A stretch of DNA of 63,741 bases, the filler included. It is 8 parts of 8 records of this genome, joined end to end, with 100 filler letters (N's around TTAATTAATTAA, not from the genome) between each part and the next. Parts side by side here need not be neighbours in the genome. Positions count along the whole stretch, not along the records: positions 24,810 to 34,798 come from DRR723986_14129; 7 more parts are not named here. One strand, given 5' to 3'. The translations under genes were made by a program, and so were the position numbers. Below the pieces are notes generated by a model that made no database searches, was not told the DNA's origin, and worked only from the letters and a program-made list of their open reading frames with translations. Numbering within the stretch: position 1 is the first letter of the stretch; the number at the start of each line of letters is the position of its first letter. Below are positions 7,123 through 34,798 of this stretch, in pieces.

Positions 7123-7222
7123 NNNNNNNNNNNNNNNNNNNNNNNNNNNNNNNNNNNNNNNNNNNNTTAATTAATTAANNNNNNNNNNNNNNNNNNNNNN
7201 NNNNNNNNNNNNNNNNNNNNNN
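7123..7222. other. Artificial contig linker
   Basis: N44-TTAATTAATTAA-N44, with stop codons in all frames. Confidence 0.98.
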
Positions 7223-24709: not shown

Positions 24710-24809
24710 NNNNNNNNNNNNNNNNNNNNNNNNNNNNNNNNNNNNNNNNNNNNTTAATTAATTAANNNNNNNNNNNNNNNNNNNNNNNNNNNNNNNNNNN
24801 NNNNNNNNN
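24710..24809. other. Artificial contig linker
   Basis: N44-TTAATTAATTAA-N44. Confidence 0.98.
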
Positions 24810-24984: not shown

Positions 24985-25548
24985 TTAGATTTTGGATAGG
25001 TTTCTCGCAAAGCGAAACGCAACTATCAAAGCGTAGAATACGATCATGAGACCGATCACATCGCCAATCATATAGCCCATCACATAAGACAGGATGTCTT
25101 CAGGTTTGCGTAGGAAAGCCAGCGTGCCAGCGTTTACCAGAGAAGACATGGTCCCGGTGATCAGAAAGAACTTCCACTTGCTTTTGGTGAAGCTCGGAGT
25201 GCGCTCACCAATAAGCAGCGTTCCCAACTTGTAACCGATGTAACAAGAGATAATTCCAGCTACGGCAAAGTGCCACCGGAACGGAACTCCTGTCACAGTG
25301 GCTAGAAATGTCATGATTAAGACTCCGGGCAGAAGATACACTAAGCCCTTCCAGCCGAAGAAATAAAACGTGATTATTCGCACGCCGTGTGGAAGATACA
25401 GAAGCCAGATCGTGGCTGGGAAGCTTGGCAGCAGGACTTTCTGAAGGGGGACTGCAAACCCCAAGTTAAGAGAAAACGCTGTGATGTAAGCGGCGGTGAC
25501 GATCAATAGGTGGTTGATGCTCAGTTTGAAGGTTTCTGGCGCCAGCAT
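24985..25548 (-). CDS. Integral membrane protein, MASE1-like
   Basis: 5-6 TM segments, LLYLPHGVRI...FG motif, C-terminal IGDVIG. Confidence 0.55.
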   Translation of the reverse strand: MLAPETFKLSINHLLIVTAAYITAFSLNLGFAVPLQKVLLPSFPATIWLLYLPHGVRIITFYFFGWKGLVYLLPGVLIMTFLATVTGVPFRWHFAVAGIISCYIGYKLGTLLIGERTPSFTKSKWKFFLITGTMSSLVNAGTLAFLRKPEDILSYVMGYMIGDVIGLMIVFYALIVAFRFARNLSKI

Positions 25549-25563: not shown

Positions 25564-25848
25564 TTAGGCAATAGCCACGTAGCGCCCACGTCTACCTGCA
25601 AGCTTCTCAATTTTGCCCGCATCTTCTAGTTGCTTTAATGCACGGAAGAGGGATGGGCGTGAAATATCTTGTGTAAGCTGGTGGCTTTGAATGTCGCTGA
25701 GCTGAGCAACGCTGGAGCTCGAAGCGCAGTCTGCAATCGCCAACAAGACTTGCTTTTCAAAGTGGCTGAGGTCTTCAAGACCTAGCTCTTGCTCCATATC
25801 GGCGAGCAGCATGCTGAGTTGAGCAAGTGGTTGAAGTTTGGCGGTCAT
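25564..25848 (-). CDS. Small winged-helix transcription regulator
   Basis: ISRPSLFRALKQLEDAGKI.K HTH-wing pattern. Confidence 0.7.
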   Translation of the reverse strand: MTAKLQPLAQLSMLLADMEQELGLEDLSHFEKQVLLAIADCASSSSVAQLSDIQSHQLTQDISRPSLFRALKQLEDAGKIEKLAGRRGRYVAIA

Positions 25849-26048: not shown

Positions 26049-26360
26049 TTAGATTGCGAGGTCTTCTAGCGTTTTGCCTGATGCCAGCAGTGCTTCGACC
26101 CACTTTGGTTTGCGACCACGACCGGTCCATGTCTGGCTGGGGTCAGCAGGGTTCGCATACTTTGGTGCAGCTTTGGTTTTGGCTTTTGAAAGCTTTTCGT
26201 CGCCAAGCAGTTCTTTGAGCGAATAACCTGCTGCACGAGCGGCTTCTTCAACAGCTGCCAGAGCTTTAGCTTTTTTGCGTTTTTCATAATTGAAAATCGC
26301 AACAGCCACATCGTCTTGCAGCTTTTTGAGTTCTGCGAGTGTAAGATCGTTTAAGTTCAT
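26049..26360 (-). CDS. hns: H-NS family nucleoid protein (HvrA-like)
   Basis: N-terminal coiled coil and C-terminal PKYANP.DP.QTWTGRGRKPKW DNA-binding motif. Confidence 0.92.
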   Translation of the reverse strand: MNLNDLTLAELKKLQDDVAVAIFNYEKRKKAKALAAVEEAARAAGYSLKELLGDEKLSKAKTKAAPKYANPADPSQTWTGRGRKPKWVEALLASGKTLEDLAI

Positions 26361-27131: not shown

Positions 27132-27273
27132 AGCCCTTATTGGTGTTTGTGCGATGTCTGTCGCTTTCAATGTTATTTATACAAAAGAAGATCTCCGGGT
27201 CGGCTGAAATTGTCAAAAAATCAAGAAATATAAATAATTTACATGAAATCTAACAAACAAAGGAGATCAGTTG

Positions 27274-27486
27274 ATGAACACAGAAGTCGTTCTTGTAAAT
27301 TACCGCATACCAGTTCCATTGAAGAATGAATTTGAGGCTGCTTGCAGGCGACTGCACATGCCGATGACCTCACAGATTAATATCTTGATCCGTGAATTTT
27401 TGGAAAAACAACGCAGCTCGCAACTGCACTGTGAAGATGAATACGAACCGATCAGCTTCTATTCAGCCAGGGGTGACACGCTATGA
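27274..27486 (+). CDS. Ribbon-helix-helix (CopG/ParG-like) DNA-binding protein
   Basis: RBS AAGGAG. VLVNYRIP strand followed by LKNEFEAAC and MTSQINILIREFL helices. Confidence 0.7.
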   Translation: MNTEVVLVNYRIPVPLKNEFEAACRRLHMPMTSQINILIREFLEKQRSSQLHCEDEYEPISFYSARGDTL

Positions 27487-27668
27487 TGCTGGATAATCTA
27501 TACCCTCGCACAAAGCCTGATCTTGTTCGTGCAATCCAGAAGATGCGTATCAACAAGATTGAAGTCATTGATGGATATGTGCCTGCTGACGAGCGTGAGT
27601 TACTCAAAGCAGCTAAAGACATGTCAGCCGGCAATCATGATCTGACCGTCATTTTGGTGAGGTCATGA
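27483..27668 (+). CDS. Hypothetical protein (61 aa)
   Basis: ATGA overlaps with both neighbours, indicating translational coupling. Confidence 0.6.
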   Translation: MMLDNLYPRTKPDLVRAIQKMRINKIEVIDGYVPADERELLKAAKDMSAGNHDLTVILVRS

Positions 27669-27979
27669 AATCGTTTGAAGAGTTTCTGATAGAACATGAG
27701 CAACTTGAAGAAGGCATCATTCGCACTGGAGCGATTGCGTCCTATGGTGCGCAGTCACGAAGAGCAGGTGATGACGCTGCCAGAGCGTTTCAGAGGGGGC
27801 GTCAAGAGCTGCGTAAGTTTATGAGGGACGACAGCGTTGAAGTCAGATTGGAACGAATAGAAACAGCTCTGGAGGCACTCCTCGCCGGTCTTATCAAGCA
27901 GCGACAGCAGATTGGGGCTGGAGTTGCGGTGGATGTTGCTGGGCATACGCTGACTGCGAAGGCGCAAAAGAAGCGCTGA
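27665..27979 (+). CDS. Hypothetical helical protein with N-terminal T4-like capsid-targeting-sequence pattern
   Basis: RBS GAGG, starts MKSFEEFLIE, coupled to the upstream ORF, followed by a terminator. Confidence 0.65.
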   Translation: MKSFEEFLIEHEQLEEGIIRTGAIASYGAQSRRAGDDAARAFQRGRQELRKFMRDDSVEVRLERIETALEALLAGLIKQRQQIGAGVAVDVAGHTLTAKAQKKR

Positions 27980-27989
27980 CTTGATACAA

Positions 27990-28018
27990 AAAAGCACTGT
28001 GTCAATCACAGTGCTTTT
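27990..28018. terminator. Bidirectional intrinsic terminator
   Basis: AAAAGCACTGTG-TCAAT-CACAGTGCTTTT between convergent ORFs. Confidence 0.75.
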
Positions 28019-28025
28019 ACTTCAT

Positions 28026-28370
28026 TTACTGCGGCAAAAATGTTGAGCCTATAGAGTAGCAAAGAAAGCTAAAGTCAACTTCTGCCTCTTTAAAACGTTG
28101 CCGCTCAGTTTCACACGTTTCAGCTGCTTCAATCAGTTCCTGAATCTGATTTGGAGTGGCTCCTGCACGGGTCAATATTTCTGACATTTGCAATGAATCC
28201 CAACCAAAATTGTCTGCTGCTTCATATAAGCAACTTTTGAGACCAGATGCTTTCTCTTTCTTGATTGCCATAGCCCAGCTATCAATAAGATCGTTCATCA
28301 TTTTTTGAAATTGAAATTTATCCGACATTATGTGTCCTTTCGTATGTTTTGGTTTCAAATTTGTCCGCAT
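28026..28370 (-). CDS. Hypothetical protein
   Basis: Open frame ending at the shared terminator. The true start may be the internal MSDKF. Confidence 0.5.
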   Translation of the reverse strand: MRTNLKPKHTKGHIMSDKFQFQKMMNDLIDSWAMAIKKEKASGLKSCLYEAADNFGWDSLQMSEILTRAGATPNQIQELIEAAETCETERQRFKEAEVDFSFLCYSIGSTFLPQ

Positions 28371-28462: not shown

Positions 28463-29071
28463 ATGAGCAACAAAATCTATTTTGAAAATAAAGTCGCTTA
28501 TGACTGGATCCGCTATAAAGACGGCTATTGGATCCCACATAGAAAGCGAGTTTATCTTTATTGGTTCAAATACCTGCAAGAAGCAGAACAGTGCCCTGAA
28601 TTTGCAATTGATTGGTCAAAATATGATGGCTGGGGCGGTGCGAACGAAGTTCTGGGGTCAAAGTTCGATGACTGGTGGAGTAATCACTGGATAGATTTGT
28701 TTGGAACCAAAGATCGTTCGTCTAGCGCTCGCTACCCAATTTCAACAAAGCAACCCAAGACAGAAGCCCTTCGACTGTCTCTGCTGTGTTGGCAAAGACG
28801 TAATGCGCCTGTTTGGGGTAAGCGCGGCAATGCATTATCGATCGCAAAGCAAGTCTATGAATACGAACTCGGCATAAGCGGCGAGAAGAAGGCACGCTTT
28901 GGAGATGATGAGTTCACAGCTGGCAGCATGAACCCCGATACCTTCAAGGTGTATGACAAAGACGACAAAGGTTCTTATGCTGACCCGCAGCGCCTACAAT
29001 CCATCGTCGGTCGCTATCTGCGAAATGCTCGACGGTATCTGAACCATGTTTGCGACGGTAGTTTTCCCTGA
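28463..29071 (+). CDS. Hypothetical Trp/Tyr-rich protein upstream of the recombinase
   Basis: 202-aa ORF with YLYWFKYL...WSKYDGWG...FDDWW and a helix-rich C-terminus. Confidence 0.75.
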   Translation: MSNKIYFENKVAYDWIRYKDGYWIPHRKRVYLYWFKYLQEAEQCPEFAIDWSKYDGWGGANEVLGSKFDDWWSNHWIDLFGTKDRSSSARYPISTKQPKTEALRLSLLCWQRRNAPVWGKRGNALSIAKQVYEYELGISGEKKARFGDDEFTAGSMNPDTFKVYDKDDKGSYADPQRLQSIVGRYLRNARRYLNHVCDGSFP

Positions 29072-29291: not shown

Positions 29292-29891
29292 ATGGCTCTC
29301 GGCAAGCAAGCAAAGATTCTCAACAAGAAGCAAATTGATCAGCTTCTTTGGTATGTCGGCACACTTCGGCACTCTGTACGTAATGAAGTCATCGTTCTGT
29401 TGTCGGTGAAGGCTGGTCTTCGTGCAAAAGAGATCGCAGAGCTGACATGGGCTATGGTTACAGATGCCGATGGAGAAGTTGGCTTTCAAATTCATCTGAC
29501 GGACACAGCGTCGAAGGGACGAAGTGGTCGTGTGATCCCAATCAATATGCAGCTCAGGCAAAAACTGATCGAACTGCTGGAGCAGGAATGCCAACATCAC
29601 CTTTTTGATTTGGGGACATCGCATGTGATCCGGACTGAGCGTTCAGAGAAAACTTCACCACAAGCAATCGTGAACATGTTCGCAGCATGGTTTGAAGATA
29701 TGGGGCTAAATGGATGTTCATCACACAGTGGTCGTAGGACGTTCATCACAAATGCGGCTAAGAAGATCAGTTCGGTAGGTGGCTCACTGCGTGATGTTCA
29801 AATGCTTGCTGGGCACTCGTCGCTTGCAGTCACACAGAGGTATATCGAGGGCGATGGCGAAGCGAGGATGAAAGTCATAGAGTTAGTCTAG
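29292..29891 (+). CDS. Tyrosine recombinase (catalytic domain only, 199 aa)
   Basis: GLRAKEI (R), SKG (K), SHSGRR (HxxR), AGH (H), TQRY (Y). Confidence 0.92.
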   Translation: MALGKQAKILNKKQIDQLLWYVGTLRHSVRNEVIVLLSVKAGLRAKEIAELTWAMVTDADGEVGFQIHLTDTASKGRSGRVIPINMQLRQKLIELLEQECQHHLFDLGTSHVIRTERSEKTSPQAIVNMFAAWFEDMGLNGCSSHSGRRTFITNAAKKISSVGGSLRDVQMLAGHSSLAVTQRYIEGDGEARMKVIELV

Positions 29892-30321: not shown

Positions 30322-30342
30322 GTCATTTCTCGTAAGAAATGA
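30322..30342. repeat. Palindromic site B (GTCATTTCTCGTAAGAAATGA)
   Basis: Near-identical copy of site A, just upstream of the RBS of the three-gene operon. Confidence 0.75.
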
Positions 30343-30359
30343 CATGTGTGGAGTGCTTG

Positions 30360-31184
30360 ATGGACACTGAACCTTATCAACTGCCTGGAGACAATGCAGT
30401 CACGATCTCTGATGAGCTAGTCAAAGAAATTCAGCGCCATTTTAAGCGTGATCGAGAAAATCGTTTCAAGCTTTTCCTGTTGAGCCAGGGCATTCGAGAA
30501 AAGTATCTAGACCCTGTAAAAAACGAATACAGCAAAGAGTTTCGTGAGTGGTATGAGCGGTCTGGGGTAGAGCAGCTATTTGGCAAGTTACCTAACTTTA
30601 CACGTTATGCAGCAGCTGGTGAGGTTATCGCCTATGTGTCGACAAAAACGTCAAATCCAAAGAAGTATCTGGCGCAACTTCCGACATCTATGAACGCTCT
30701 GTATGAGATTTCACAGATTGTAAAAGCAGATGCTGAGGCATTCAAAGTTTGTTTGCATTTTACGCCGACACGAAGGGCGCTGTCCGACCCAAAGCATGAA
30801 TGGAAGACAAAAGGGACAGAACCACTTATCCAGCCAGGTGTGACCGCCAAGGAACTCGTAGGTTGGCGGAAGCGCTGGGAAGCCCCCACTCGACAGAAAG
30901 ACGATGACAAGTTTCGGCGAAATGTGAAGTTGCTCACCGTGTCCGTTAGCGAAGACATCTTTGCCTTTGATGCACGTGGCAAGACTGGTGTTGTCGATTT
31001 GGAGCAAGTTCAAGACTTGCTAGCACAGATCCAAGCCCTTTTTTCAAAGTCGAACGAAAAGCAATTCAAACTTGAGACGCAGATTGAGCGCATCACTGAA
31101 AAGTATGAAGCAGAAAAGGAAAAGGCTGACCCTGCCAGTGCCTTAAAGTCACCGAAAAAGAGTAGAGCGGACGACTACAAATGA
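30360..31184 (+). CDS. Hypothetical protein, DUF3102-like
   Basis: Start reassigned to ATG 30360 (GGAG 6 nt upstream). FREWY...FTRYAAAG...LPTSMNALYEISQI...IQPGVTAKEL resembles phage DUF3102 proteins. Confidence 0.6.
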   Translation: MDTEPYQLPGDNAVTISDELVKEIQRHFKRDRENRFKLFLLSQGIREKYLDPVKNEYSKEFREWYERSGVEQLFGKLPNFTRYAAAGEVIAYVSTKTSNPKKYLAQLPTSMNALYEISQIVKADAEAFKVCLHFTPTRRALSDPKHEWKTKGTEPLIQPGVTAKELVGWRKRWEAPTRQKDDDKFRRNVKLLTVSVSEDIFAFDARGKTGVVDLEQVQDLLAQIQALFSKSNEKQFKLETQIERITEKYEAEKEKADPASALKSPKKSRADDYK

Positions 31185-32542
31185 CGCTGGATACACCCAC
31201 CGGGCAAGTTGCTGAAAGCGCCGCATACGACAATCTCGTTGCGGATGTAGAGAACTACCAGAAAGGCTTTCAGCCTCCAAAGCCTGAGAAAGCACCTGAC
31301 TTCCCATTTGAACTCAAGGTTCACATCTGGCGAGCAGGTGAAGCGCAGTTATTTGCCCGAACCATCGGCAAGAAACTCAGCAGCTCCAAAAAGAAATTCG
31401 TCTATCGAGACAGCACCAAAACCAAACCTGAGAATGCGGTCTTTGTCGAAAAGCGTGCCAACCCGATCGTCAAAAAAACCACTCATCTAACCCGTGAAGA
31501 AGCAAAGCACTGGAAAAACACGATTGAGTTTTCTCAAACGGCTTTCGTCCCATACATTACGTTCACATTGATTTTTCAGAACATCGACCAACTTGCTAAG
31601 TTTGCTCGCCGCGTGAAGCAGAAAATCACCCTGAACACTTCATCGATAAGTTTTCCCAAGAAGCGCGAGCGTGTTTGGAAATACAAATGGGTCTCTGAGT
31701 GGGATGACTGCAATCCCAAGTATCCCGTCTACATCGTATCTAAAGGGCGTGCTGACTCTCGTCTCACTGCGAACACATTTGAACGCTGTAATATCCCCTA
31801 TTTTGTCGCCATAGAACCGCAGGATTACGATGATTACGCCTGCGTCATCGATGAAAAGAAGTTACTTGTTCTGCCTTTTTCTAACCATGGCGATGGTCCC
31901 GGACGTGCAAGAAATTGGTGCTGGGATCACTCAATGAGTTTGGGTTTCAAGCGCCATTGGGTCTGCGATGATAACATCGACGGCTTCATGCGCCTCCACA
32001 ATGGCAGGAGACACCCCGTTGGGGATGGTGGACTATTTCGCGTCATCGAAGAGTTCGTCGACCGCTACAAGAATGTGCCGATAGCGGGACCACAGTATCG
32101 TTTCCATGCTCTTGAAACCGAAAGCTACCCGCCGTTCGTGCTGAACACGCGTATCTACTCGTGCTTGCTGATTGAAAACTCATGCAAGCATCGCTGGCGC
32201 GGTCGATACAACGAAGACACCATTTTGAGCCTTGATGTCTTGAAAGATGGCGACTGCACCATGCTGTTCAACTGCTTGCTTCAAAACAAAATTGTCACTC
32301 AAGCACTGAAGGGTGGCAACACCGACGAGTTCTACGACGCAGAAGGCACTTACAACAAATCGAGAATGCTAGAGGTAGTTCATCCCGATGTGTCGAGAGT
32401 AGTCTGGAAGTTCAATCGTTGGCACCACGAAGTGAACTACAAGCCATTTAAGGCGAATGCCCCTCAGTTTGTTGATGGATACGATCCAACAAAATGCAGA
32501 ACCGAAACAGACCGATATAGTGTGGTGCGAGTGAAAACCTGA
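31181..32542 (+). CDS. GREB1-like / TET-associated (TAGT) glycosyltransferase with N-terminal duplicated accessory domain
   Basis: PKYPVYIVSKGR, ARNWCWDHS, HWVCDDNI, NTRIYSCLLI, WRGRYNEDTILSLDVLKDG, KGGNT, RWHHEV. Confidence 0.8.
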   Translation: MTLDTPTGQVAESAAYDNLVADVENYQKGFQPPKPEKAPDFPFELKVHIWRAGEAQLFARTIGKKLSSSKKKFVYRDSTKTKPENAVFVEKRANPIVKKTTHLTREEAKHWKNTIEFSQTAFVPYITFTLIFQNIDQLAKFARRVKQKITLNTSSISFPKKRERVWKYKWVSEWDDCNPKYPVYIVSKGRADSRLTANTFERCNIPYFVAIEPQDYDDYACVIDEKKLLVLPFSNHGDGPGRARNWCWDHSMSLGFKRHWVCDDNIDGFMRLHNGRRHPVGDGGLFRVIEEFVDRYKNVPIAGPQYRFHALETESYPPFVLNTRIYSCLLIENSCKHRWRGRYNEDTILSLDVLKDGDCTMLFNCLLQNKIVTQALKGGNTDEFYDAEGTYNKSRMLEVVHPDVSRVVWKFNRWHHEVNYKPFKANAPQFVDGYDPTKCRTETDRYSVVRVKT

Positions 32543-33097: not shown

Positions 33098-33334
33098 TGA
33101 TCGCCCGTTGAAACGCGCTGAGCCCCTTTTTGTTGCAAGGTGTTCAGGACTGTCGTGGCTTTGGGTTGCTCCAAAGAGACTTGGTCACCCTAAAGCAATC
33201 CCATGCCTCTTATGGGCTTTTGAAAAAGCTACGGATACTGTTTATCTTTTTGAGACTGCTTTGCGCTTGGTGCAAACGCGCTGCAAATTTTAATGCGCCG
33301 ATAGACGTCAACACTGTTTCAATTGGAGAAGATC

Positions 33335-34798
33335 ATGGCGACGGTAAACGTGAATGGATCGTATGCTGCGGTTGAAGGTGACGATACTTTAGTTATCACA
33401 AATAGCCAGTGGGTCCATTTGGACTACGGGGTCAATGTTGGAGCCCAGGGTGTTATTGCTAACCTGACTAACACTTCGCTATATGACGGTGTTACGCCAT
33501 TGACACCCCTTAATGAGGTTGATGCTACTAATGCGTCTATTTTGGCTTCTCCATGGACGATAATAGACCAATTTGGCACCATTGACACGCTTCAAGGCTT
33601 TGTAGCTGGTGGCATTTGGGGCACCCCTTATGATGACATTGTTGTGGCTGATGCTATTTTCGATTTCAACCCAAATGGCGGTAACGATCAGCTCTACATA
33701 GCAGGCGATGCTTATGCATCGCTTTCAGCGCCCTACGGTGCCCGTATGGTGATTTTCAATATATCTGAAAATAATTATACTTATTTTTACCCAGACGGTT
33801 CTCAAGGCTCGGTTTCAGTATCCGGACCAGGCACACTTACTGCTTTGGTCGGTGCTGCGCCAAATGGCAACGGTCAAGTAATTAACTCCCTGACAGGCTC
33901 CACAGGTAATGACCGCTTCGCATCATTAGGTGCCACCGATTTAATCTGGACTGCGGGAGGCGCAGATGAGATTGCAATTTGGGAACCCGGTGGTGAGGTT
34001 TCTATACAAGATGAATTTTCAAGCGATGATTTCTTCTCATTTATAGTCGATGGAAGGTTTGGCTTTGATACAAATGATTGGCTTTCCAATTTTGAGGTTA
34101 CATATAATGGTTTCGATAGAACGGTAATTAGGACAACTTCGGCAAATGTTCCTGTCACTGACCTAGTCGTCCTTGGAGAGTATTCTTTGGACTCCCTGTT
34201 TATAGACGAAAGCATTCCAGGACAAGTTCGCCTTTACCTGAACCCGGACGTGCCTCAAATTACACTCGATGCTTATAGCTCGCCCAAGTATGATGAATAC
34301 AGCTTCAAATACTTCCAGACAGATTTTAACAATGCTGGTCTGAATTTTGATACAACCAACATGCTGGTAACTTCATCTACTGGATTTCAGTATGATTTAT
34401 CTGATTATCTAACGAACGGTCGCTTTCTCGCGCTTGGGCTTACCACCGGAGACGACATTATTACTAAAGATCAATCTGTTTATCTTGATGTCTTCTACTT
34501 TGGAGGTCACGATGTAATCAATAGCTCTGTGCATTCAATAGATACAAGCGTATCGGTGGACGGAAACGGTATTGCACGCTGGGCTGGCTATCAAAACGGT
34601 GAAAGCTTATATTTCTCGGGTGGACCAGGCTATACAGGAAACGCGACTGTAAACATTGATGCAAATAACAATCTCAACATCAATATTTTTGACGACACTG
34701 GCACAACCGGCACTATTACCGGCAAGAACATTGAACGGATCAACATCAGCGGAATTGGTGACCATACTGTTGTTGGCAACGACTTTGAACACATGTTC
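33335..34798 (+). CDS. Large acidic secreted/surface protein with degenerate RTX-like repeats (3' truncated)
   Basis: GTPYDDIV, GGNDQL, GSTGNDRF, GGADEI, GGHDVI, NIERINI..GD..V.GND. Rich in G/D/N/T/S. Confidence 0.65.

Follow-up and report, generated by a model that had tools for sequence, protein, structure and literature searches.

A leader resembling the phage T4 capsid targeting sequence on a predicted basic hairpin protein encoded with a ribbon-helix-helix gene in marine bacterial DNA

The internal proteins IPI, IPII and IPIII of bacteriophage T4 carry an N-terminal capsid targeting sequence (CTS) that is removed by the prohead protease gp21. Here we describe T104, an open reading frame (ORF) of 104 aa that starts with a sequence of this kind and lies on a 9,989-bp contig (positions 24810-34798) within a stretch of 63,741 nt, referred to as the window. 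An earlier note on this DNA had pointed to the leader and proposed that a non-phage element might use it to bring a protein into T4-like phage heads. Its observation is confirmed by our analysis, and its interpretation is partly supported by the sequence comparisons. In the T4 record AF158101, IPII and IPIII start with MKTYQEFIAE and IPI starts with MKTFKEFTST. The leaders match those given in the note, so its account of T4 holds. According to the review PMC9026906, the first 10 residues of IPIII suffice for targeting, as the note had also stated, and foreign proteins fused to the leader are packaged and delivered; the same review assigns targeting mainly to residues 4 and 7 and processing to residues 8 and 10. 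PMC3012670 describes the T4 internal proteins as diverse, with only the CTS conserved. The literature searched contained no paper that links a CTS with an element other than a phage.

T104 fits the pattern M-K-[ST]-[FY]-x-E-F-[IL]-x-E at all positions. Its leader ends with L8-I9-E10 and is followed by a second L-x-E, L14-E15-E16, which had been correctly read from the DNA. The gene is the last of three on the plus strand, and the features of this operon are as follows.

27210..27238, plus strand: promoter-like site TTGTCA-17-AATAAT, 10/12 consensus positions, 5' of the three-gene operon; a consensus match only.
27271..27486, plus strand: RHH71, a 71-aa ribbon-helix-helix (RHH) protein, whose stop overlaps the next start (ATGA).
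27483..27668, plus strand: s61, 61 aa, no family; mean column identity 82%, the highest of the three operon genes.
27665..27979, plus strand: T104, ATG start, 104 aa, N-terminus MKSFEEFLIEHEQLEEG.
27665..27694, plus strand: T104 codons 1-10, MKSFEEFLIE, the T4-CTS-like leader, identified by pattern match.
27704..27712, plus strand: T104 codons 14-16, L-E-E, followed by G17; agrees with T4-type prohead protease sites, which read [LI]-x-E.
27990..28018, plus strand: terminator-like hairpin, a 12-bp stem followed by a T run, 11 nt past the T104 stop; it closes the operon.

The T104 ATG overlaps the stop of s61 (ATGA, 27665-27668), and the s61 ATG overlaps the stop of RHH71 (ATGA, 27483-27486). 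The T104 start was identical across 85 locus-encoded homologues, with 0-26 open codons 5' of it; among these homologues, none starts elsewhere, an outcome that the earlier note had named as refuting its idea. A mis-called start was rejected because the start is both conserved and coupled to the upstream gene, and we regard the ORF and its N-terminus as real.

The account that we favor, tentatively, is that T104 works in the cytoplasm as part of an RHH-linked module, with an N-terminal peptide of different function whose resemblance to the CTS is convergent. T104 would act in the cell together with RHH71, a DNA-binding protein, and the two would form a core regulatory or addiction (toxin-antitoxin [TA]-like) module of the integrative islands that marine Rhodobacteraceae and further marine bacteria carry. 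RHH71 would repress the operon and may bind T104 through its conserved C-terminal tail, and the acidic N-terminal segment MK[ST]F... might mask the basic hairpin or dock a partner. The likeness to the CTS would have arisen by convergence, in a short N-terminal helix that is acidic and amphipathic, and would have come to notice because the scan was very large. The observations behind this account are the three coupled genes with their promoter-like site and terminator hairpin, the linkage to RHH and recombinase genes and the defense-type cargo. The arrangement of small, adjacent and overlapping genes, one of them encoding an RHH protein, is a feature of type II TA modules and is present in RHH71-s61-T104. 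Neither partner of RHH71 (T104 or s61) belonged to a known toxin family in Pfam, NCBIfam, PADLOC or PHROG, and s61 had no match of any kind in these four collections.

RHH71 itself gave weak matches to RelB/DinJ (E 6.7e-5, 23.1 bits, under the family cut-off of 45.65 bits) and to the Arc-like phrog_582 (E 0.0036). It consists of a typical RHH core, a variable linker and an invariant C-terminal tail, EPISFYSGMDDAL, with the consensus EP[IV]SFY..[MI]DD.L. Judged by its sequence, this tail is likely a partner-binding peptide. An AlphaFold2 model of T104 based on 46 homologues (pLDDT 87.8) showed a two-helix hairpin (H4-50 and H58-103), in which the leader formed the beginning of helix 1. As modeled, T104 is a small basic two-helix hairpin of an undescribed superfamily, and the acidic leader residues would face the basic C-terminal KAQKKR in the antiparallel arrangement. 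Foldseek searches with the model retrieved only generic helical hairpins from PDB and BFVD (best E 0.27 and 0.12, respectively). Profile matches to PDB sequences were limited to designed helical bundles and were set aside as low-complexity helix bias, and matches in the ESM Atlas were all below 0.9, none of them with a family.

Close relatives of T104 were examined in 87 fetched loci (L001-L007, L010-L089), 83 of which encode T104. RHH71 was present in 62 of these 83 loci, s61 in 61, rec199 (a short tyrosine recombinase) directly downstream in 31 and an integrase in 13. In other loci, a serine resolvase replaces rec199 (L065:10186-10734, L089:3492-4028). Homologues of ~104 aa numbered 260, all from aquatic metagenomes, and further homologues were found in Rhodobacteraceae genomes (HTCC2083, Planktotalea and Ascidiaceihabitans). 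Partial matches to the locus came from sequencing runs of seawater, algae and aquatic metagenomes in 10 studies, with no RNA run among the matches listed. Homologues were absent from 50,697 phage records, 72,556 plasmids and IMG/VR. As far as the phage and viral collections searched can show, the carrier is a non-phage element. The description of the gene as island-encoded is only partly borne out: the window shows a separate contig and nothing more, and the support comes from relatives that lie in chromosomal integrative elements. In HTCC2083, the gene is in a 3.95-Mb scaffold, within a low-GC patch that adjoins an integrase as well as a tRNA-like stretch. Two metagenome contigs have the element behind rplM-rpsI, with an integrase at its start. 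A related element after rplM carries BREX BrxL (Lon-like protease) and PglZ as cargo (L080:14994-19615). HTCC2083 contains three family copies within ~27 kb (L001, L293-L295; G006 contig 5, at ~119.6, 128.6 and 145.4 kb), and the repeated integrase 3' ends at this site (L001:8505-8702) look as if elements had accreted there in tandem.

The chance frequency of the leader, a check that the earlier note had suggested, turned out to be very low. Calculated from the local amino-acid composition, the chance of the strict pattern is 0.6-5e-8 per protein, and that of an ungapped BLOSUM62 score of at least 33 against MKTYQEFIAE is 1-3e-6. The 30-nt back-translated pattern, with only F allowed at position 4, had no match in 401 Rhodobacteraceae genomes. 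The 7-residue core MK[ST..]F.EF occurred at 14 places in 9 of the 401 genomes, where about two were true ORF starts, which gives a core frequency of ~2e-6 per protein. Judged by their motifs, these two may be a C5-methyltransferase-like and a ClpS-like protein. The scan that brought up T104 covered ~250,000 windows, which we estimate at roughly 1.5e7 proteins, and 0.1-0.7 strict matches are expected by chance in a set of this size. A single match is no proof of function by itself. One genome (G156, Rhodobacteraceae) had six identical stretches encoding MKSFSEFRVGL at contig ends (L303, L307-L311), which probably represent one end of a mobile element that is repeated there, and not a leader-bearing gene.

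Conservation of the leader differed between the close family and the superfamily. The strict motif was found in 3 of 86 locus-encoded homologues, T104 of the window included, and in 28 of the 120 nearest database matches. The commonest close form was MKSLVEHM[VA]E, another clade had MKSFQS[FL]Q, and position 7 was H in 51 of 76 unique close homologues. Because the close homologues are mostly MKSLVEHMxE, and large clades have MKSFQS or MKTFKSY, leader residues 6-8 must be regarded as drifting. The earlier note had suggested asking whether the N-terminal pattern is more strongly conserved than the rest of the protein. Within the close family (187 members) it was not: the top-residue frequency was 0.64 at positions 2-10 compared with 0.77 in the remainder, position 7 was F in 59% of members, and L14, E16, R20 and G22 were 99% conserved. 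In an alignment of 45 divergent superfamily members, M1, K2 and F4 were each at least 90% conserved, and F4 reached this level in alignments A3 and A7. At this wider range, MK[ST]F and the L-x-E site were kept better than any other feature.

The superfamily was assembled by a profile search of 1.84 billion representatives, which yielded 161 members, 99 of them with a recognizable core. Among these 99, K2 was found in 64, T/S3 in 57, F4 in 73, K5 in 31, E6 in 53 and F7 in 44, and MK[ST][FY] in 40. In 105 further members, typically starting with MKSFQSLQ or MKTFKSYH, MK[ST][FY] was kept in 84 and the acidic-6/hydrophobic-7 core in only 10, so that the universally kept part of the leader is four residues only. 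The motif was displaced 1-8 residues from the start in some relatives, and the best fits to the phage consensus (e.g., MKTFKEFREQ and MKTFKEFISD) were scattered among divergent members. In 77 representatives in which the L-x-E site was located with a regular expression that required [LIVM]-x-E, its P3 residue was L or I in 73 and the next residue G, S or A in 57. The part after L-x-E had a pI >9 in all 77. No Pfam or PHROGs match was obtained for 34 distant members, the distant members P0227 and P0213 had no match in the phage records or viral contigs searched, and there was no match in 5 T4-like viral records. Distant members occurred in 2 of 401 sampled Pseudomonadota genomes. The gene context of distant relatives was seen in one genome (G887), where the gene was ATGA-coupled in reverse order to a 66-aa RHH-like ORF, with a DNA invertase and a DNA methyltransferase nearby.

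A back-translated pattern scan showed that a leader of the form MK[ST]F.EF[ILM].E starts ORFs in at least 123 IMG/VR loci (L090-L212). It was at the ORF start in nearly all IMG/VR matches listed, and the contigs were of low GC. Among those examined, the leader-bearing phage proteins were unrelated to each other and often very basic; some formed tandem pairs (L141/L153, L149, L151/L152, L210). A T4-type prohead protease (Peptidase_S77) was encoded on four of the five largest leader-bearing contigs. Three cargo families recurred behind the leader: ...ESSLSRIKSKSDKGG, with 328 relatives, ...ECYSIQETSLTRVMS and ...EAYDKEVMGSSQIRR. In the family with 328 relatives, the leader was MKT[FYL]K[EQKD]F[LMIVC]x[EDQ], and position 7 was F in 60 of 60. 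The consensus drawn from 74 distinct phage leaders was MK[TS]F[KQ]EF[ILM]xE; the residue after E10 was A or S in 48 of them, and E5 and H11 of T104 were absent from all 74. Aligned with hhalign, the close T104 family and the phage cargo family matched over columns 1-10 only (probability 18.5%). Remote homology of the T104 core to this cargo family was rejected because the alignments are confined to these columns. A tblastn search of phages with the first 24 residues of T104 (E up to 10) gave no match, the search space being too large for a 10-residue signal. Homologues of T4 gp21 were found by tblastn in 2551 phage records, a count that says nothing on Rhodobacteraceae hosts.

Several of our results weigh against a purely cytoplasmic role with a convergent N-terminus. 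T104 had no match in Pfam, PHROGs, PADLOC or NCBIfam, and because it belongs to no known toxin, regulator or defense family, the activity of an RHH71-T104 module is a guess; s61 is missing from 22 of the 83 T104 loci. Mean column identity was 31% in an alignment of 45 divergent members, yet the only columns conserved at 90% or more were M1, K2, F4, E23 (of L-x-E) and Q89. Such N-terminal conservation is not usual where a helix end is purely structural. The consensus MKTFKEF, which is that of the phage leaders, is found in about half of the representatives. An acidic linker of 0-24 residues, which contains Pro or Gly in 23 of 77 representatives, connects the leader with the core. In the model of P0227, the leader (residues 4-14) forms a helix of its own, and a low-confidence linker leads from it to a hairpin that begins at an I-E-E site. 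Finally, hhalign aligned the superfamily with the phage cargo family over columns 1-10 only, with a probability of 66.8% and E 5.3e-5. T4 internal proteins relate to each other in this way, being diverse and having only the CTS in common (PMC3012670).

An alternative is a working T4-type leader, by which T104 would be loaded in trans into the heads of T4-like phages; we consider this possible but rather doubtful. The leader would comprise MK[ST]F.EF, an acidic linker and L-x-E with G or S after it. Upon infection, T104 would bind the prohead scaffolding core, and the prohead protease would cut after E10 and/or E16, leaving an 88-94-aa basic hairpin (pI 10-10.8) in the head with the DNA. This product might spoil the progeny or the next infection, as a defense, or accompany the DNA into the next cell. 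The islands would accordingly encode dedicated 'Trojan' head cargo that is loaded in trans, cut, and then sabotages progeny or the next infection or protects co-travelling DNA, an idea to which we give similarly limited credence. The T104 leader fits every constrained position. Leaders of this type head many, often basic and tandem, ORFs in viral contigs that also encode the protease, and the leader columns, MK[ST]F (84 of 105 members) and L-x-E are kept across the superfamily. The variable linker, the small residues after L-x-E in the superfamily and after E10 in the phage leaders, the basic mature part and the separate leader helix of P0227 are all consistent with a removable leader. The layout is like that of T4 IPI and IPII, in which the leader is followed by a second x-x-E site at residue 19, and PMC9026906 reports both that 10 residues of IPIII suffice and that foreign proteins with the leader are packaged. 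The islands also carry anti-phage cargo. On the other side, packaging and cleavage of T104 are predictions from sequence, no T4-like phage of the carrier genera was identified here and no helper phage is known. If targeting depends mainly on residues 4 and 7, as stated in PMC9026906, the invariant F7 of the phage family contrasts with the F7 of the T104 family, kept in little more than half of the close members and in fewer than half of the representatives. The big clades with MKSFQSLQ or MKTFKSYH, the residues E5 and H11, the displaced motifs and the presence of a single leader-bearing protein on the island (compared with many in phages) point the same way; among 2192 other ORFs in the related loci, none had the leader. 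The proposed targeting to T4 heads thus gains from the shared leader, the retained MK[ST]F and L-x-E and the basic mature part, and loses by the rarity of the strict motif and the drift at positions 6-8.

Capture of a leader-bearing cargo gene from a T4-like phage, with the leader inherited, unused and decaying in most lineages, is improbable in our view. It would explain the scatter of the best phage-consensus fits over divergent members, the drift of positions 6-8 in many clades and a mature part that shares its small size and basic character with phage internal proteins; a DNA glycosyltransferase of phage type is also present on the island. However, the phage and viral collections searched contained no phage-encoded homologue of the mature domain, and the phage and superfamily profiles have only their first 10 columns in common. 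Since MK[ST]F and L-x-E are under strong constraint, an unused relic fits poorly. The strong conservation of MK[ST]F, combined with a variable linker, could mean that the N-terminal peptide serves as an address, or as a tag for interaction with another particle, with a protease adaptor or with a transfer apparatus, and the tolerance of S6 and of L, Y or H at position 7, unlike the sampled phage leaders, agrees with this. No candidate partner is encoded nearby in the 87 loci, though, and we know of no other tag with the MK[ST]F leader sequence, and we give such a tag little weight. Between mimicry of a T4-like tag and coincidence, the data may fit either, and the RHH-linked cytoplasmic module is the account that we tentatively prefer.

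The window is a pseudomolecule of 8 pieces joined by 7 linkers of the form N44-TTAATTAATTAA-N44, at positions 7167, 14594, 24754, 34843, 40986, 48968 and 57127. The T104 contig has a GC content of 0.44-0.49, compared with 0.52-0.70 elsewhere in the window, and is truncated at both ends, on the left within an integrase gene and on the right within a large ORF. Because this low-GC stretch is a separate contig, the window itself shows neither island status nor linkage to flanking DNA. The GC of the pieces spans 0.44-0.70, so they may not all share one source organism. The remaining features of the contig are listed below.

24710..24809, no strand: artificial linker N44-TTAATTAATTAA-N44 at the left contig end.
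24851..24976, plus strand: 3'-terminal 41 codons of a tyrosine integrase gene (~402 aa), truncated at the contig end; 82-97% identity to the C-termini of full-length integrases in 13 related loci.
24985..25548, minus strand: 187-aa predicted membrane protein, no family, kept beside the integrase in 6 related loci.
25564..25848, minus strand: 94-aa winged-helix-like regulator; weak TrmB/MarR-type matches under cut-off.
26049..26360, minus strand: 103-aa H-NS-like protein with a Histone_HNS C-terminal domain (E 5.7e-19).
28026..28370, minus strand: 114-aa ORF, no family, common only to the closest locus, L010.
28463..29071, plus strand: 202-aa ORF, no family, in 5 related loci.
29292..29891, plus strand: rec199, 199-aa short tyrosine recombinase (Phage_integrase, E 9e-21).
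30339..32542, plus strand: cargo pair of a 281-aa ORF (no family) and a 453-aa TET-associated glycosyltransferase-like protein (PF20691, E 1.6e-35; phrog_842, E 4.5e-46).
33323..34798, strand not assigned: large, repeat-like ORF of at least 492 aa with a high content of G, D, N and T; no match in Pfam or PHROGs; truncated by the contig end.
34799..34898, no strand: artificial linker at the right contig end, which cuts the ORF starting at 33323.

The H-NS-like protein may be a silencer carried by the element. The recombinase rec199 consists of the catalytic domain only, without an N-terminal DNA-binding domain, and lies 3' of T104 in 31 related loci. The pair of the 281-aa ORF and the glycosyltransferase-like protein recurs in three related loci (L064, L066 and L080). 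The annotation of phrog_842 is beta-glucosyl-HMC alpha-glucosyltransferase, a phage-type DNA-sugar enzyme that here lies outside a phage. A PHROGs scan found no phage structural family among the 13 contig ORFs, nor were there T4-like genes among them, including a head module of the gp21/gp22/gp23 type. This agrees with the statement that the contig has no capsid genes, which is weak evidence for a piece of 10 kb.

If the leader does direct T104 into phage heads, cells or mobile islands would place a protein of their own inside the head of a lytic phage, which would add a so far unreported layer to phage-host conflict or to hitch-hiking. The CTS route would then have its first use outside phages, with the superfamily, including its MK[ST]F leader, as the signature, and any CTS-like start in a bacterial genome would become a lead to such factors. 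If the leader is inactive, the analysis still defines an undescribed, widespread marine family of RHH-linked basic hairpins with an MK[ST]F start, encoded beside island recombinases, and the case shows how often a 10-residue match can arise at such a scan size.

Compared with the CTS that T4's internal proteins carry, T104 shares the N-terminus M-K-[ST]-[FY]-x-E-F-[IL]-x-E, a second [LI]-x-E a few residues further on, as in IPI and IPII, and the combination of an acidic leader with a small basic mature part. It differs in being located on a bacterial integrative element with no gp21/gp22/gp23-type genes nearby, in having a mature domain for which no phage homologue was found and in the poor conservation of residues 6-8 in most relatives. 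The leaders of uncultured marine and aquatic T4-like phages have a consensus, MK[TS]F[KQ]EF[ILM]xE, that is also seen in the T104 superfamily. In these phages, many unrelated genes bear the leader, frequently as tandem copies, whereas the island has one such gene, and the phage leaders keep F7 and favor K/Q at position 5 and A/S at position 11. In phage P1, an N-terminal peptide of <30 residues directs DarB into the head, according to PMC9024508. There the signal is on a phage-encoded protein, and no sequence likeness to T104 has been reported. Phage satellites and hitchers, such as PLE of Vibrio cholerae, resemble the T104 element in being small integrative elements with defense genes and a possible dependence on a helper phage; on the T104 element, no replication, capsid-remodeling or packaging genes were recognized. 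Satellites redirect capsid assembly, and to our knowledge none carries a CTS-tagged protein. Type II TA modules and omega-epsilon-zeta-like modules differ from the operon in that T104 belongs to no known toxin family, RHH71 scores under the family cut-offs and a third gene, s61, is often present. The operon resembles them in its small overlapping genes with the RHH gene first or last, in its location on mobile elements and in the conserved C-terminal tail of RHH71.

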